Shown here in pieces: positions 1-32,014 of a DNA stretch of 64,000 nucleotides (its first letter is position 1; the number at the start of each line of letters is the position of its first letter). The DNA comes from Escherichia phage OLB35: sequence record MH992122.1. The stretch is one strand, 5' to 3'. Made by a program: the position numbers and the translations under genes. Under the pieces are notes generated by a model. The model was given only the letters and a program-made list of their open reading frames with translations, had not been told where the DNA came from and searched no databases.

Positions 1-1531
1 GCTTCTTTAATTATTTCACCATTACGTTGAGCTGCAAGCATGTAACCTTTATGTTCTTTACGTTGATTAAAGACCTTAGTGATTTCAGTTGGAACTACAC
101 CATCACGGTCTTTATAATACATCATGCCGTTAGGAGAGCAACTGTACACATCTGAAGGACGTTCAGCGATTGCGTTAATATAATCATGCAATGGAGCTAC
201 TTTAAACGTTCCTGCTATTGTTTCTGGGCTAATATTCACTTGGCGAATAATACTTGGATACAGAGATGTAAGGTCGAAACTCATTACATATTTGTATCGA
301 TTTGGAATAGGTTCCTTAACAAAAGCGCCAGGATAAGGTTGAACCTGGTGAGAACGACCTTGTGGAATCACCTTGTTCTGCTCTTTAAGGCTATTAAAAA
401 TAATAACATCCCATGTTTTAATTGGGCTAAACACAGATTGAATCTGTATCTTAGCATAATAACCCATGTCCAAACTCAAGTTTATGAACTGGCGTTTAGC
501 ATCAATTTGCAATACACGATACACGTCGATAATGTTATAAGAAATATATCGTTGGTGATTACTTTCACGAAGTTTAGAAATAGGACCGTCATATTTCAGT
601 TTACCGACATTCAATTCAAATTCTGAAATGTAATCCAGAGAATACGACGGTTGGTTTGTGAAAGAGAATTTTTTGTAAAGGTCGATATAATCAAGAACAG
701 AGATACCGAACAATGTAATGATTTCACGAGAACCGTACATGTTTTCAATAACTTTAACACGAGTCTTGCGATACTGCAAAAACCTAGATCATTGTCGGGT
801 GGTGATAAACGTTTCGCAGTAGATTCGCCAAAAATATTCTTGATTCGGTTATACACATATGGAATATCAAATGACTCAACGTTCCATCCAGTCAAAATGA
901 CAGGAGTTTTCTGTTGCCAGAAGTTGAGATATTCCATCAACAATTCTTTTTCGTTATCAAACGGCATATAAATGATTTTATCAATAATTTCGGATGGAAC
1001 TTCATCACCACCTTGTTCTTGAAGCTTAGCAGCGATTTCAATAGACCATTCTTCTACATTACCATATGGAGAATTCAATAGATCAAATACGTAGAACCTG
1101 TCGTCAATTGAGTCATAATGGGTGATAGCATCAATCGGATGTTTTGCTTGTGACGGCTCAGGGAACCCATCCGGAGATGTTACTTCGATGTCGAAGTTAG
1201 CCACACGAATTTTTGTATGGTCGTATTTGATTTCATAGTTATAAGTGTCAGACAAATACGCCAATTTGAAATCGTCCATACCTAATGCTTCAAGACCAAT
1301 ATCTTCCATGCGTTTAATCCATTGGGAGGCATCACGCATATTAGCGAACAACTTACGAGTACACGGCTTACCGTAGATATCGAAATATTTAGTAGCCTGA
1401 CTTTCTGGACAATGAGCAAACAATGATGGTTTATATTCTACTTCACGAGTACGTTCACGGCCATTAGAATCGATGTAACGTTCAAAAATTGAATCACCAA
1501 TCTGTTCAACCGTTAAGTAAAATTCTTTCAT
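1..1531 (-). CDS. 43: DNA polymerase gp43 (B-family), N-terminal ~500 codons; frame interrupted near 775-800; gene runs off the window start
   Basis: From ATG at 1531: MKEFYLTVEQIGDSIFERY...FDIEVTS...GESTAKRLSP, RB69/T4 gp43-like exonuclease domain. Below ~782 the polymerase continues in a different frame (RKTRVKVIENMYGSR...SLYPSIIRQVNISPE...) to position 1. Confidence 0.9.
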
Positions 1532-13154: not shown

Positions 13155-13625
13155 TTAATCATGTTTCCACACCCCATCGGTATTTGACCAAAGTCGCTGA
13201 TTATCTGATCCTCGCCACAGCTTTTTGGTCGGAAGATTTTTCTCATACTTCCCATCAATAATAACATCAACATATTTAAGCATTTCTAGCTGTTTAATAT
13301 CTTCAAACTTATATCCTGTCCACAACCAAATGCTTTTATTGGGATAAAAATTTTTTACTGTTTGAACAATGCAATGAATAACATCTCGATTGTCAGGATA
13401 GAGAGGGTCTCCTCCAGATATAGTTAATCCTTCTATATAATCATTATTCAAACATTCAATTAATTGTTCTAGTGTTTCACCAGTGAATGGAATACCATTT
13501 CTAGCATTCCATGTTGATTTATTATAACACCCTTCGCATTTATGCAAACACCCTGTAACGAAAAGAACAGTCCTGCAGCCCGGGCCATTCACAAAATCGC
13601 AAGGATAAAATCTATCATAATTCAT
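13155..13625 (-). CDS. nrdG: Anaerobic ribonucleotide reductase activating protein NrdG (radical SAM)
   Basis: CxxxCxxC cluster (GCLHKCEGCYN); sits directly downstream of nrdD. Confidence 0.85.
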   Translation of the reverse strand: MNYDRFYPCDFVNGPGCRTVLFVTGCLHKCEGCYNKSTWNARNGIPFTGETLEQLIECLNNDYIEGLTISGGDPLYPDNRDVIHCIVQTVKNFYPNKSIWLWTGYKFEDIKQLEMLKYVDVIIDGKYEKNLPTKKLWRGSDNQRLWSNTDGVWKHD

Positions 13626-15439
13626 TGGTGTTTAACCCTATGCATGATTTCTTTATTTTTACCGAGATTAAATCCGCGTTCGTTCGGATTTCCCAAATAA
13701 CCGCATGTCCTTCTTATAGTGTTCATCTTTTTAGGATCAGTTTCTCCACAAACTGAACAAACAAATCCGTTTTCAGTAGGAGTCATTTCATGAGTACTTC
13801 CGCATGTAAAACATTTATCCACTGGCATATTAACACCAAAATAATCTAAATGTTGTGCAGCATAATCCCAGACAGCCTCAAGACCCTTTAAATTGTTTTT
13901 CATATCTGGAAGTTCAACATAAGAAATGTGACCACCTGTCGCAATGAAATGATATGGGGCTTCGCGAGAAATCTTTTCAAACGGAGTGATATTTTCTTCT
14001 ACTGAAACATGGAAACTGTTAGTGTACCAGCCTTTATCAGTAACATCTTTTACACTTCCATATTTTTCAGTATCAAGTTTACAGAAGCGATAACAAAGGT
14101 TTTCAGCAGGAGTAGAATATAAGCTAAAAGCAAATCCAGTTCTTTCAGTCCACTGTTTAAGATGAGCATTCATTTTAGTTAAAATTTCTTGTCCAATATC
14201 ACGACCAACAAGAATATTCAATTCATGAATACCAATGTATCCTAAAGACACTGAACTTCTACCGTTTTTAAATAACTCAATTATATCGTCATCAGGTTTA
14301 AGACGAACCCCGAATGCACCTTCTTGGTAAAGAATAGGAGCAACAGTAGCTTTAACTCCTTTTAAGGAACCAATTCTACACATCAAGGCTTCAAAGCACA
14401 GATCCATTCGTTCATTGAATAATTCAACAAATTTCTGTTCATTGAACTGTGTTCCAATATAAGAATCTAATGCGATACGAGGAAGATTCAGTGTTACAAC
14501 ACCAAGATTATTGCGACCATCAAGAATTTCATTACCAGTCGAATCTTTCCATACGCTCAAGAAACTACGACAACCCATTGGAGAAACTGGAACTGAAGAA
14601 CCAGTAATAGCTTTATTATTCTTAACCGAAATAATGTCAGGATACATTCTTTTGCTTGCACATTCTAACGCAAGTTGTTTAATATCATAGTTTGGATCAT
14701 CTTTATAAAGATTAACACCTTCTTCAACAAACATAACAAGTTTAGGAAAAATAGGAGTTATTCCATCACGACCGAGACCTTTAATACGATTTTTCAGAAT
14801 TGCTTTCTGAATCATTCGTTCAGTCCAATCAGTTCCAGTACCAAATGTAATTGTTACAAAAGGCGTTTGTCCGTTTGAACTAAAGAGAGTATTTACTTCA
14901 TATTCATAAGCTTGGAATGCGTCATAGACATCTTTTTCTGTTTTGGATTGAGCATAATTCAGAATGTCCGGTATTTGCCATTTTTCTGCATCTTCAACAT
15001 GTTTAGCGTATGTACGTTTAACATAAGGAGAAAGTACTTTATCGACATTCGCAAATGTAGTTCCGCCATACTGATGTGAAGCAACTTGTGCAGTAATTTG
15101 TGCCATAATTGCAGTAGCAACACCAATCGATTTAGGCGTTTCAATTTGAGCATTGCCTAATTTAAATCCGTTCTCAAGCATTCCTTTTAAATCTACTAAA
15201 CAACAATTAGTAAATGGCAATGATATACTGTAATCTAAATCATGAAAATGAATTAACCCGGCATTATGAGCATTTACAATATGGCTTGGAAGAATACTAC
15301 AAGCGATATGTTTAGAAACAATACCGGCCATTAAATCTCTTTTTGTTGGAAAGACACGAGAATCTTTGTTGGCGTTTTCGGTATTTAATTCTTTATCTTT
15401 ATTTGAAATAAAATATAATAGTTTATATACTACATTCAT
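13622..15439 (-). CDS. nrdD: Anaerobic ribonucleoside-triphosphate reductase NrdD (glycyl radical enzyme), intronless
   Basis: 605 aa; C-terminal glycyl-radical motif RRTCGYLG and CxxC zinc ribbon; one contiguous ORF. Confidence 0.9.
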   Translation of the reverse strand: MNVVYKLLYFISNKDKELNTENANKDSRVFPTKRDLMAGIVSKHIACSILPSHIVNAHNAGLIHFHDLDYSISLPFTNCCLVDLKGMLENGFKLGNAQIETPKSIGVATAIMAQITAQVASHQYGGTTFANVDKVLSPYVKRTYAKHVEDAEKWQIPDILNYAQSKTEKDVYDAFQAYEYEVNTLFSSNGQTPFVTITFGTGTDWTERMIQKAILKNRIKGLGRDGITPIFPKLVMFVEEGVNLYKDDPNYDIKQLALECASKRMYPDIISVKNNKAITGSSVPVSPMGCRSFLSVWKDSTGNEILDGRNNLGVVTLNLPRIALDSYIGTQFNEQKFVELFNERMDLCFEALMCRIGSLKGVKATVAPILYQEGAFGVRLKPDDDIIELFKNGRSSVSLGYIGIHELNILVGRDIGQEILTKMNAHLKQWTERTGFAFSLYSTPAENLCYRFCKLDTEKYGSVKDVTDKGWYTNSFHVSVEENITPFEKISREAPYHFIATGGHISYVELPDMKNNLKGLEAVWDYAAQHLDYFGVNMPVDKCFTCGSTHEMTPTENGFVCSVCGETDPKKMNTIRRTCGYLGNPNERGFNLGKNKEIMHRVKHQ

Positions 15440-29628: not shown

Positions 29629-29905
29629 TTAAACTGCTTTAGATACTTCGTCACGAACCTGGTGGAAGTTCTTGAGCTGTTCAAGGCGTTGTTCGTAATA
29701 CGCAATCTCATCTTCTTCAAGACAATCGTCAGCGTCTTCTTTCAGATATGCCTTGTACTCATTAAAGAGGGCCCATAGGCGGTTCTCAAAGTCATCAAGG
29801 CTTTGAATTTTCTTGTGCTTAGGAACAAGGCTAAAAGGATTGCTTTCAGTTATGCTTGTGACCTTTTCTTATGAGTTCCAAATACCCAGTAATAGTAGAA
29901 GCCAT
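29629..29905 (-). pseudogene. Frameshifted ORF ([14 protein letters not shown] then frame change)
   Basis: ATG at 29905 runs 19 codons to a TGA; an adjacent frame continues ...[15 protein letters not shown]...[28 protein letters not shown]; break at the T4 run 29864-29867. Confidence 0.5.
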
Positions 29906-30174
29906 TAGTATTTTTCCTCAGGTCGAAATACTGCACGACACGCCCACATGCTGGCTTCTTTTAGATGTTGCTTAGCGTACTTAAGAGCCTGCACTGCATC
30001 CATATCTTCTTTGGTTTGCTGCTCTGTTTCATTTTCTTTCAAGATATATGCTTCTTCAATAAGAGCATCAAACAGCAATCCAAGACGGACTTCTGCATCT
30101 TTAATAGCGTTCACTTTACCGATTTTATCATCGGTATGCGGCTTGTAGCCTTTGATGTCTTCAATCGACATAAG
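29905..30174 (-). CDS. Hypothetical protein
   Basis: Internal-Met start (MSIEDIKGYKPH...), ~89 aa; the longer track form overlaps the upstream gene. Confidence 0.45.
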   Translation of the reverse strand, partial: LMSIEDIKGYKPHTDDKIGKVNAIKDAEVRLGLLFDALIEEAYILKENETEQQTKEDMDAVQALKYAKQHLKEASMWACRAVFRPEEKY

Positions 30175-30385
30175 GAATTTCCTCATCGGTGGCAAGGTCA
30201 TATTCGACCAATTGGATAGGCTCGTTAATACCATATCCACGTACAGTGATATCGGTTGTCGGATATTTTCCAGTAATATCACCCATTCTAAATGATTCAG
30301 TGAATGATTGCTCGCCTGAATTACTAAACCATTCTGCGAAAGCATTTAGCACATCTTTAGACCCTTCTATAATCAATTTAGCCAT
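30161..30385 (-). CDS. Hypothetical acidic protein
   Basis: 74-aa ORF. Confidence 0.45.
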   Translation of the reverse strand: MAKLIIEGSKDVLNAFAEWFSNSGEQSFTESFRMGDITGKYPTTDITVRGYGINEPIQLVEYDLATDEEIPYVD

Positions 30386-30747
30386 TATAGACTCTCAGTA
30401 AAGGTACGAGCGATAACGTCGCGCTGCTGTTCCGGAGTCAGAGAGTTAAAGCGAACTGCATAACCGGATACACGGATGGTCAGCTGCGGATATTTTTCCG
30501 GATGCTTAACTGCATCTTCCAGAGTTTCACGTCGCAGAACATTAACGTTCAGGTGTTGTCCACCTTCAATTTTAACTTTAGGTTGATGTTCAATTTCAAT
30601 TTCACGGGCATTCAAACCGTAGAAAATTTCCGGGTCTACAATAGCGTCTTCTTTAAAAGTCTTAGAGGCAATAATCCGGGCTTGAGTACCGTCTTCAAAA
30701 TAAATAGTGCCTTTATGTGCACCTTCAAGAATTTGATATGCTTTCAT
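30385..30747 (-). CDS. Autonomous glycyl radical cofactor (GrcA/YfiD-like; T4 Y06I family)
   Basis: C-terminal [29 protein letters not shown] glycyl-radical motif; the last ~60 aa look like E. coli GrcA as recalled. Confidence 0.85.
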
Positions 30748-30753
30748 ATAACC

Positions 30754-31062
30754 TCAATTAGAAAATAAATTTATCCAAGTTTTTTCTTTAATCAAAAATG
30801 GGTCGGAATTAAACGCCATTAAACTTTGAGTGATTAATCCCTTAAATGGACCATCAATAAATTCCATTTTGAAATGCGGAATAGTAGTCATCAACCGTGC
30901 ATTAGGAGCAGTACAAAGAACCTGCTGCCCTGCGAACGGACCTTTAGTCAAACGGTATCGTTTAGGTTTAAAATGGTAAATCTCATAATTTTCTACAAGG
31001 GCCCTTTTATTGCATACTGGGCTGTTATAACAATATTCAAAAACTTCAATAGTGGTCATCAT
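30754..31062 (-). CDS. Hypothetical protein
   Basis: 102-aa ORF. Confidence 0.45.
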   Translation of the reverse strand: MMTTIEVFEYCYNSPVCNKRALVENYEIYHFKPKRYRLTKGPFAGQQVLCTAPNARLMTTIPHFKMEFIDGPFKGLITQSLMAFNSDPFLIKEKTWINLFSN

Positions 31063-31711: not shown

Positions 31712-32014
31712 TTATTTACCTTTAATTACTTTAGCTGCTTCGATAGCCGCTTGCTGAAGGTCATCCATAGACATACCGAATTTAGAAGCAAAGTTATCAA
31801 TTTTCTTTTCGACAGCATTCAAAGGCTTGGCCTGTTTACCTTCATTAGCGCCAGGAAGAGCGAGAATACGCTCTTTGTCAATATAAAGGCTTACAAGTTT
31901 CTTACGGTCTTTATCGGACAAATCATGAAATGAATGGGCCTTTTTATTTATAGCGGCTTCTAATTTACCTGCACTCACTCGCGCTTCAGTAATAAATTCT
32001 TGATATGTTTTCAT
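31712..32014 (-). CDS. ipII: Internal protein II-like (capsid-targeted)
   Basis: N-terminal capsid targeting sequence MKTYQEFITEA...; 100 aa; resembles T4 IPII as recalled. Confidence 0.8.
   Translation of the reverse strand: MKTYQEFITEARVSAGKLEAAINKKAHSFHDLSDKDRKKLVSLYIDKERILALPGANEGKQAKPLNAVEKKIDNFASKFGMSMDDLQQAAIEAAKVIKGK

Follow-up and report, generated by a model that had tools for sequence, protein, structure and literature searches.

The vs.6 locus of phage OLB35

The stretch of Escherichia phage OLB35 analyzed here (sequence record MH992122.1; 64,000 nucleotides [nt], referred to as the window) carries on its minus strand an ortholog of the T4 gene vs.6, whose product, Y06I, is a small relative of the Escherichia coli autonomous glycyl radical cofactor GrcA (YfiD; family TIGR04365, IPR011140). 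The gene and its biochemical role are already known (vs.6/Y06I in T4, with the label GrcA in RB69) and no new functional biology is reported; the question is where the two halves of the gene came from. The following features make up the locus, with GC3 denoting the GC content at third codon positions.

30385..30747, minus strand: vs.6 (T4 Y06I) ortholog, a 120-residue GrcA/YfiD-like autonomous glycyl radical cofactor, assigned from its open reading frame (ORF), Pfam and synteny
30752..30755, minus strand: Shine-Dalgarno-like GAGG, 4 nt 5' of the vs.6 ATG and overlapping the vs.7 stop codon, read from the sequence
30568..30747, minus strand: 5' half of vs.6, codons 1-60, apparently of phage lineage (N-terminus common to phage orthologs), AT-rich, GC 0.36, GC3 0.23
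30385..30567, minus strand: 3' half of vs.6, codons 61-120 and stop codon, encoding the glycyl radical domain, apparently derived from E. coli grcA (177 of 183 nt identical), GC 0.48, GC3 0.40
30395..30531, minus strand: 137 nt of perfect identity with E. coli grcA, gene nt 217-353, bounded by private changes at nt 216 and 354
30556..30570, minus strand: putative recombination junction interval, from the codon-by-codon alignment
30463..30465, minus strand: codon of Gly95, predicted to bear the radical, within TIRVSGYAV, which contains the RVSGY fingerprint; the residue corresponds to E. coli GrcA G102 and PflB G734 in the GrcA/PflB alignment

The ORF of 120 codons (30385..30747, minus strand) opens with ATG and ends in a stop codon that is partly shared with the vs.5 start (TAATG). 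Having its own Shine-Dalgarno sequence and start codon, with unrelated small genes as neighbors, it encodes a small stand-alone protein of ~14 kDa. Pfam places Gly_radical (PF01228) at residues 59-101 with a score of 67.3 bits (cut-off 22.2), and the top solved-structure matches in phmmer are E. coli YfiD/GrcA (6OWR, E = 2.4e-42), on whose residues 25-127 the phage residues 18-120 align, followed by pyruvate formate-lyase (PFL) at residues 696-759.

Within the regB-denV early region, the gene has vs.7 and vs.5 as its neighbors, as in the T4 vs.6 orthologous group (Straboviridae). Its surroundings (vs.8-vs.7-vs.6-vs.5-vs.4-...-regB) are in the order annotated for RB69, which has an extra ORF, 117c, between vs.4 and regB; downstream of vs.5 the order vs.4, regB, vs.1, vs agrees with both annotated T4 and RB69 genomes. 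Because of this agreement with the two annotated genomes the gene is assigned as the vs.6 ortholog, and the first-pass annotation, made from the sequence alone, was right to bring up the YfiD-like spare part Y06I that T4 encodes: 112 of 120 amino acids (93.3%) are identical between the window protein and T4 Y06I/Vs.6, with all eight differences within the first 60 residues. Identity with RB69 Vs.6 (NP_861810) is 97.5%. Synonymous divergence (dS) of the genes around vs.6 is 0.03-0.14 to RB69 versus 0.6-2.6 to T4, and the nearest vs.6 alleles are those of phages classified as Mosigvirus. Judged by these comparisons, the window belongs to an RB69-like phage (Mosigvirus) and the gene is its vs.6/Y06I ortholog. 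According to the comparison of T4-like genomes in PMC1524935, vs.6 is kept in six of them (T4, RB69, RB49, RB43, 44RR and Aeh1).

A junction between two halves of vs.6

The first-pass annotation held that the last ~60 residues of the protein match E. coli GrcA and that the N-terminal 60 are unrelated to it. The former is borne out, as residues 61-120 of the window protein (EGGQHLN...TFTESL) are identical to E. coli GrcA (WP_000627804) at 60 of 60 positions. The latter is not: the N-terminal halves alone, phage against GrcA residues 25-67, give a BLASTP match of 30% identity over 43 amino acids (E = 7e-6), the phmmer alignment on 6OWR begins at residue 18, and the NCBIfam model TIGR04365 aligns from residue 19. 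By these alignments the vs.6 protein is homologous to GrcA over its full length, its N-terminal half having diverged strongly. Its N-terminus (MKAYQILEG...) is common to the Jiaodavirus, Slopekvirus and Karamvirus orthologs, and the 5' half matches phage orthologs only, whereas the 3' half groups with Escherichia. Because the 5' half is common to related phage genera, half of an old phage gene appears to have been replaced. Thus, of the proposal that the gene was acquired from the host by capture or gene conversion, conversion of the 3' half stands (177 of 183 nt) and capture of the whole gene does not.

A further suggestion was that near-identical DNA could mark a recombination junction, and a sharp one is indeed found at ~30556-30570. 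The final phage-specific base is gene nt 178, and E. coli-type and phage-type orthologs first differ at gene nt 186-192. When ungapped segments of 30 nt are compared, anchored at the 3' end, identity rises from 67-70% to 83% and then to 90-100% over ~45 nt at the junction; farther upstream the same comparison gives 27-50%, where the register is no longer meaningful. Composition shifts at this point too, GC going from 0.36 to 0.48 and GC3 from 0.23 to 0.40; GC content of the whole window is 37%. At the other end, the match runs 8 nt past the stop codon (30377-30384), as a GGCT..AA similarity with one gap within the vs.5 coding start, which we treat as chance.

Nucleotide identity with E. coli grcA

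In the codon-by-codon alignment, the last 183 nt are identical to E. coli grcA at 177 positions (96.7%) in the window and at 181 (98.9%) in T4. All six differences of the window are synonymous, and the two of T4 are confined to the final two sense codons. The longest exact runs are 137 nt in the window and 176 nt in T4, against a background median of 18 nt between bacterial species and a maximum of 51 nt between E. coli and any other genus. The T4 3' half shares 181 of 183 nt with E. coli grcA, 179 with that of Escherichia sp., 168 with Citrobacter amalonaticus, 152 with Salmonella and 139-167 with all others. Similarly, 3'-half dS to E. coli is 0.046 for T4 and 0.145 for the window, versus 0.36 between E. 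coli and C. amalonaticus, 0.65 for Klebsiella and 1.02 for Salmonella; unconverted phage orthologs show dS of 1.7-2.6 to E. coli, including one (contig L095) that encodes the identical 60 residues. In a neighbor-joining tree of the 3' 180 nt, Tequatrovirus and Mosigvirus fall in a clade with E. coli and Escherichia sp. (bootstrap 197/200). The nucleotide alignment proposed in the first-pass annotation hence yields a match that is Escherichia-specific, with dS of 0.05-0.15. On these synonymous distances, the donor is placed as E. coli itself or a very close relative, and the transfer as later than the split of E. coli from Citrobacter and Salmonella.

The whole window, cut into three, was also compared by megablast with 5,426 complete E. 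coli genomes. Its sole match is 30377..30569 to grcA, in all 5,426 genomes and at ~96-97% identity. The window carries another gene that serves as a control, since a host homolog exists:

13622..15439, minus strand: nrdD, anaerobic ribonucleotide reductase (NRDD 570 bits and Gly_radical 90 bits in Pfam)

No DNA-level match of nrdD was found by megablast among the 5,426 E. coli genomes. With the rest of the window, nrdD included, giving no match, host-level nucleotide identity is peculiar to this half-gene; identity with the host is higher here than at other conserved genes, there being no other E. coli DNA match in 64 kb. pflB was considered as donor and rejected because its match is 78.7% only.

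In the first-pass annotation, the degree of protein identity was itself taken to suggest transfer. This argument does not hold. The 60-residue C-terminus of GrcA is identical, or differs by one to a few changes, in 80 grcA loci of Enterobacterales and Pasteurellaceae, and the 60 residues of E. coli are encoded without a single change by phage contigs L095-L097, whose DNA agrees with that of E. coli at only 152 of 183 nt (dS ~2). Protein identity was therefore rejected as evidence of capture, the C-terminus being near-invariant in ~80 species and also in phages with saturated dS; because of this near-invariance, only synonymous sites can decide on a transfer. The same two facts would fit a reading in which no DNA was transferred and the C-terminal identity reflects extreme purifying selection to fit PflB/PflA, perhaps with convergent codon usage. 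However, L095-L097 show 31 differences from E. coli in 183 nt, T4 and the window 2-6, and even E. coli-infecting Krischviruses reach 126-138 of 183 only. Moreover, the phages keep the E. coli codons AAG, CAT, CAA, TTT and TAT, which we take to be non-major codons in highly expressed E. coli genes, and codon optimization cannot explain the match because such codons are retained. An origin of the identity by selection alone is thus very improbable.

It is also necessary to consider the direction of the transfer, as sequence identity by itself gives none, and in principle a T-even phage could have supplied E. coli with this part of grcA. Within the host gene, however, both halves diverge concordantly from relatives: dS of the 5'/3' halves is 0.07/0.05 to Escherichia sp., 0.57/0.36 to C. 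amalonaticus and 0.80/1.02 to Salmonella, and the concordance extends to Klebsiella. The composition of the tract fits a host gene and not a phage gene, and related phage genera have AT-rich, diverged versions. We regard transfer from phage to host as barely credible. Because its halves diverge concordantly, the host grcA is native, and the transfer therefore went from host to phage.

Distribution and age of the E. coli-type tract

To see how widespread the tract is, E. coli grcA was queried against phage records: 752 match, 638 of them at ≥95% identity, with a maximum of 99.5%. None of the 752 covers the 5' part of grcA, and among the matches listed every phage match starts at grcA nt 199/200. 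On these searches, the transfer is common to hundreds of phages and not peculiar to the window genome. With this junction and tract recurring in 638 phage records, and in the 20 alleles read from Tequatrovirus and Mosigvirus, the transfer is also not recent on the scale of this phage, contrary to the proposal in the first-pass annotation. The RB69 tract matches E. coli grcA at 178 of 183 nt. The E. coli-type tract is also found in Tequatroviruses isolated on Hafnia, Serratia, Salmonella and Yersinia, and so does not depend on the isolation host; tracking of the host on short time scales was rejected for this reason.

An alignment of 9 Mosigvirus and 11 Tequatrovirus alleles shows 11 fixed differences between the genera in nt 1-180 versus 1 in nt 181-360 (P = 0.0056, Fisher's exact test). 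The ratio of fixed to polymorphic sites is 11/19 in the 5' half versus 1/22 in the 3' half (P = 0.007; P = 0.03 for third codon positions alone). On the strength of the 11 versus 1 fixed differences, the host-like 3' half postdates the separation of the 5' halves. Across it, most phages carry the E. coli base at every site except in the last few codons; most variants are singletons or present in few phages, and individual phage alleles have 1-9 differences from E. coli in 180 positions. Derived variants in the tract comprise 16 changes from GC to AT versus 7 from AT to GC. In the window, the changes at gene nt 189, 207 and 216 are not found in the closest sampled relatives (L084 and L085); the nt 189 change recurs in MM02 and the nt 207 change in CCU7, both other Mosigviruses. 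By this pattern the tract is drifting slowly toward phage composition, mostly by synonymous changes from GC to AT.

Two Tequatroviruses, Escherichia phages OES_C-1 and OES_C-2 (L178 101..457 and L179 129..485), have a 6-nt in-frame deletion just 5' of the junction, which turns IEIEPQP into IETQP. Their tract is the most E. coli-like seen, with 1 difference in 180 nt and AGC CTG kept at the 3' end.

Flanking genes and the number of conversion events

Four further genes of the window bear on the setting of vs.6.

30754..31062, minus strand: vs.7 ortholog, the upstream neighbor (99% amino acid identity to RB69 vs.7; dS 1.07 to T4)
30161..30385, minus strand: vs.5 ortholog, the downstream neighbor, from gene order (dS 2.16 to T4)
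29905..30171, minus strand: vs.4 ortholog of the Acb2/Tad1 family (PF24729, 63.9 bits; RB69 vs.4 has 88 residues)
31712..32014, minus strand: T4-type ipII-like internal-head-protein gene (94.6% DNA identity over 332 nt, 94% protein identity and dS 0.08 to T4 ipII)

The automatic ORF list runs vs.4 to 30345, and the gene of RB69 size begins at an internal ATG. Its Acb2/Tad1 hairpin domain marks it as an anti-CBASS nucleotide sponge, which is context only and has no part in the vs.6 mechanism. The vs.7 gene (30754..31062) is ~57-60% identical to that of T4 (L002 2113..2493) in its 5' part, with an indel, and 80-95% identical in its 3' 150 nt. Since vs.7 is mosaic between the genera in this way, the block of similarity around vs.6 begins inside it. 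The ipII-like gene sits among genes with dS of 0.6-2.6 to T4, and RB69 has the flanks only at that place; it has the appearance of a T4-type cassette that entered a Mosigvirus background not long ago.

The tract common to Tequatrovirus and Mosigvirus would have been installed at least twice, or once and then passed between the genera. If conversion happened only once, in one lineage of T-even phages, recombination during co-infection would have carried the 3' half, or a block around it, between Tequatrovirus and Mosigvirus. This fits the common start position among the matches listed to E. coli grcA, and the block at ~30300-30900 in which similarity between the window and T4 is 83-100%, above that of its surroundings. 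The C/A polymorphism of E. coli at nt 282, moreover, is not reflected among the phage alleles. Exchange of DNA between the genera in nature is indicated as well, because the T4-type ipII of the window, ~1 kb away and 94.6% identical in nucleotides, is not in RB69 at that place. However, the shared junction is expected regardless of the number of events because phage-host homology starts only there; laboratory recombination of RB69 with T4 or other RB phages reportedly does not occur (PMC6024577); and since the 5' half keeps 11 fixed differences, as against 1 in the 3' half, exchange between the genera would be confined to ~180-250 bp. A single event followed by spread is a serious possibility that still falls somewhat short of an even chance.

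The same figures can be read from the other side, as repeated conversion by the host, with at least one event each in Tequatrovirus and Mosigvirus, plus one from Klebsiella to Jiaodavirus, so that the half-gene is periodically reset to the local host. The excess of fixed differences in the 5' half (11 versus 1), the mostly low-frequency 3' polymorphisms arranged round the E. coli state, the four haplotypes at the adjacent nt 357/358, and the laboratory isolation of the two genera (PMC6024577) all agree with independent events, as do the features of the Klebsiella phage KP179: the Klebsiella-type residues LLDAVEH, GC3 of 0.55 versus 0.20, and 100 of 105 nt shared with Klebsiella versus 90 of 105 with E. 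coli. Yet the Tequatroviruses from Hafnia, Serratia, Salmonella and Yersinia all have the E. coli-type tract, the clade of KP179 with Klebsiella has a bootstrap of 42/200, and the Slopekvirus, Karamvirus, Krischvirus and T5-like orthologs lack a host-like tract. Repeated conversion we rate about as high as the single event, again somewhat short of an even chance. A stronger form, that the vs.6 3' half is a hot spot repeatedly overwritten, in strictly lytic phages, by the chromosome of the infected cell, independently in Tequatrovirus and Mosigvirus (from E. coli) and in Jiaodavirus (from Klebsiella), seems unlikely.

Orthologs in other phage groups

The Jiaodavirus gene (KP179, L166 401..763) is the one other candidate for a host-derived tract. 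Its 3' half encodes LLDAVEH and has GC3 of 0.55 versus 0.20 in the 5' half, and its first 105 nt match Klebsiella grcA at 100 positions, the next-best bacterium at 95 and E. coli at 90. Over the whole tract, however, the match with Klebsiella grcA is 161-163 of 183 nt only, and the clade that unites them is found in 42 of 200 bootstrap replicates. The species of the two Klebsiella contigs was taken from the NCBI protein name 'Klebsiella variicola'. KP179 was used in place of Klebsiella phage ValerieMcCarty01 (L003, OR354875.1; 2501..2863), whose 363-nt vs.6 has ~10 N's, probably ambiguous base calls of the deposited genome. The KP179 pattern is suggestive only and may reflect an independent, older or partial host conversion from Klebsiella.

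No fresh host-like tract was found in the sampled Slopekvirus, Karamvirus, Krischvirus, Proteus/Morganella phages, T5-like phages and Pasteurellaceae-type contigs. E. coli-infecting Krischviruses, for example, share 126-138 of 183 nt with E. coli grcA. The T5-like (Demerecviridae-sized) Salmonella and Escherichia phages have a 122-residue GrcA-like gene whose product is ~53% identical to the window protein; the carriers include H8, oselot, rutana and a set of IMG/VR contigs of 104-121 kb (L126-L150, L154, L155 and L163). Compared with the bacterial grcA genes sampled, their 3' halves agree at only 127-139 of 183 nt, and they therefore lack a fresh host tract.

Proposed role of the protein and formation of the chimera

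Wagner et al. 2001, as cited in PMC8683613, found that E. coli YfiD and T4 Y06I are radicalized by the PFL activase, and that the complex of YfiD or Y06I with PFL cleaved at Gly734 brings back activity; the role of the radical glycine is likewise taken from the YfiD and PFL literature covered there. Given the 93% identity with Y06I and the identical C-terminal domain, the host activase PflA would put the radical on Gly95 of the window protein. The activated protein would then dock on PFL that oxygen has cleaved at Gly734, substitute for the lost radical domain and restore activity, and restored PFL would keep acetyl-CoA and formate flowing in an infected cell exposed to oxygen. The genome encodes two glycyl-radical proteins, nrdD lying 15 kb from vs.6. 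The class III ribonucleotide reductase NrdD uses formate as its reductant; because the phage encodes NrdD, protection of PFL may also protect anaerobic synthesis of deoxyribonucleoside triphosphates, and we suggest on our own account that vs.6 may guard this supply through formate for the phage NrdD. A tie of vs.6 to nucleotide metabolism is suggested in the account of Nolan et al. (PMC1524935).

As to the gene, codons 1-60 would be a long-standing phage form of the GrcA N-terminal region, rich in AT, and codons 61-120 would have been overwritten by chromosomal E. coli grcA in a gene conversion, by homologous or homeologous recombination. Phage 3' halves that were not converted share ~75-85% of their nucleotides with host grcA, which should be enough for the very active recombination system of T-even phages to recombine such homeologous sequences. 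The 5' crossover probably lay where the similarity of phage and host begins (GAA GGT GG...), and the tract would reach the stop codon or nearly so. Because the sequences upstream of GAA GGT GG are too different, any crossover would map to the same apparent junction, 30556-30570. Installation would have been followed by slow decay, with six changes in the window, three of them at bases not changed in its closest sampled relatives.

Several observations weigh against this account. The NCBIfam GrcA equivalog model TIGR04365 scores the window protein (residues 19-120) at 158.8 bits versus a cut-off of 170, a shortfall due to the diverged N-terminal half; RefSeq labels the RB69 and JS09 vs.6 orthologs GrcA despite this score of the window protein. 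Weak purifying selection on synonymous sites could be an alternative source of the many polymorphisms and few fixed differences in the 3' half. At nt 357/358 all four combinations of AGC/AGT with CTG/TTG are present, so that the 3' end of the tract cannot be fixed. At nt 282, a common C/A polymorphism of E. coli, the 20 phages have 17 C, 2 A (L089 and PP01) and 1 T and do not mirror the host; a query with the A allele returned no phage at ≥99% identity, and this pattern speaks against frequent ongoing conversion. Even with these points, it is very probable, on the sequence comparisons above, that vs.6/Y06I encodes a spare part for PFL whose 3' half was overwritten, from host to phage, by E. 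coli grcA DNA.

Comparison with known systems

T4 Vs.6/Y06I and RB69 Vs.6 resemble the window gene in length (120 residues), neighbors, E. coli-like 3' half and junction, and T4 Vs.6 has eight N-terminal substitutions relative to the window protein. E. coli GrcA is likewise of stand-alone size, with an identical C-terminal 60 residues (177 of 183 nt) and a homologous N-terminal region. In contrast to it, the phage protein has an N-terminal half that is only ~30% identical and is 7 residues shorter, and the phage gene lies in an early-gene cluster, whereas E. coli grcA lies between ung and eamB. Jiaodavirus, Slopekvirus, Karamvirus, Krischvirus, the T4-like phages of Proteus and Morganella and the T5-like Demerecviridae share with the window a small Gly_radical protein with a conserved C-terminal domain. 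Unlike in the window, no bacterial grcA among those sampled comes closer to their 3' halves than 126-163 of 183 nt, on which ground they lack a fresh host tract; Jiaodavirus, in its first 105 nt, is a possible exception.

Intragenic recombination between host and phage has reportedly been described in the cyanophage genes psbA and psbD, by Zeidner in 2005 and Sullivan in 2006. There, as in vs.6, a metabolic gene of a lytic phage is partly exchanged with the host copy, giving mosaic structure and shifts in composition. The vs.6 case differs in that a single block of ~180 nt is involved, the gene is very short, the donor can be named to species, and the rest of the window is without host DNA similarity. 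A literature search on Y06I, yfiD, vs.6 and grcA in phages returned functional papers and Nolan 2006 and no DNA-level mosaic; the main T4 genome review lay outside this search and may already record the mosaic.

Implications

The case offers a lesson of method, in that identity to an invariant host protein is no proof of recent transfer and synonymous sites are needed. If the vs.6 3' half should after all be a hot spot of conversion, the spare radical domain would be periodically reset to a sequence compatible with the PflB/PflA of the local host, and vs.6 would keep a natural record of recombination from host to lytic phage and of earlier hosts. Apart from that, ~180 bp of T-even DNA is essentially E. 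coli chromosomal, the other 63.8 kb of the window having no DNA-level host similarity, and half of a gene can be younger than its remainder. The interest of vs.6 is modest and evolutionary, as a clean and datable conversion tract from a host to a lytic phage. From this tract it would follow that lytic phages with hydroxymethylcytosine DNA, which destroy the DNA of their host, can nevertheless, by homologous recombination, fix short host tracts.

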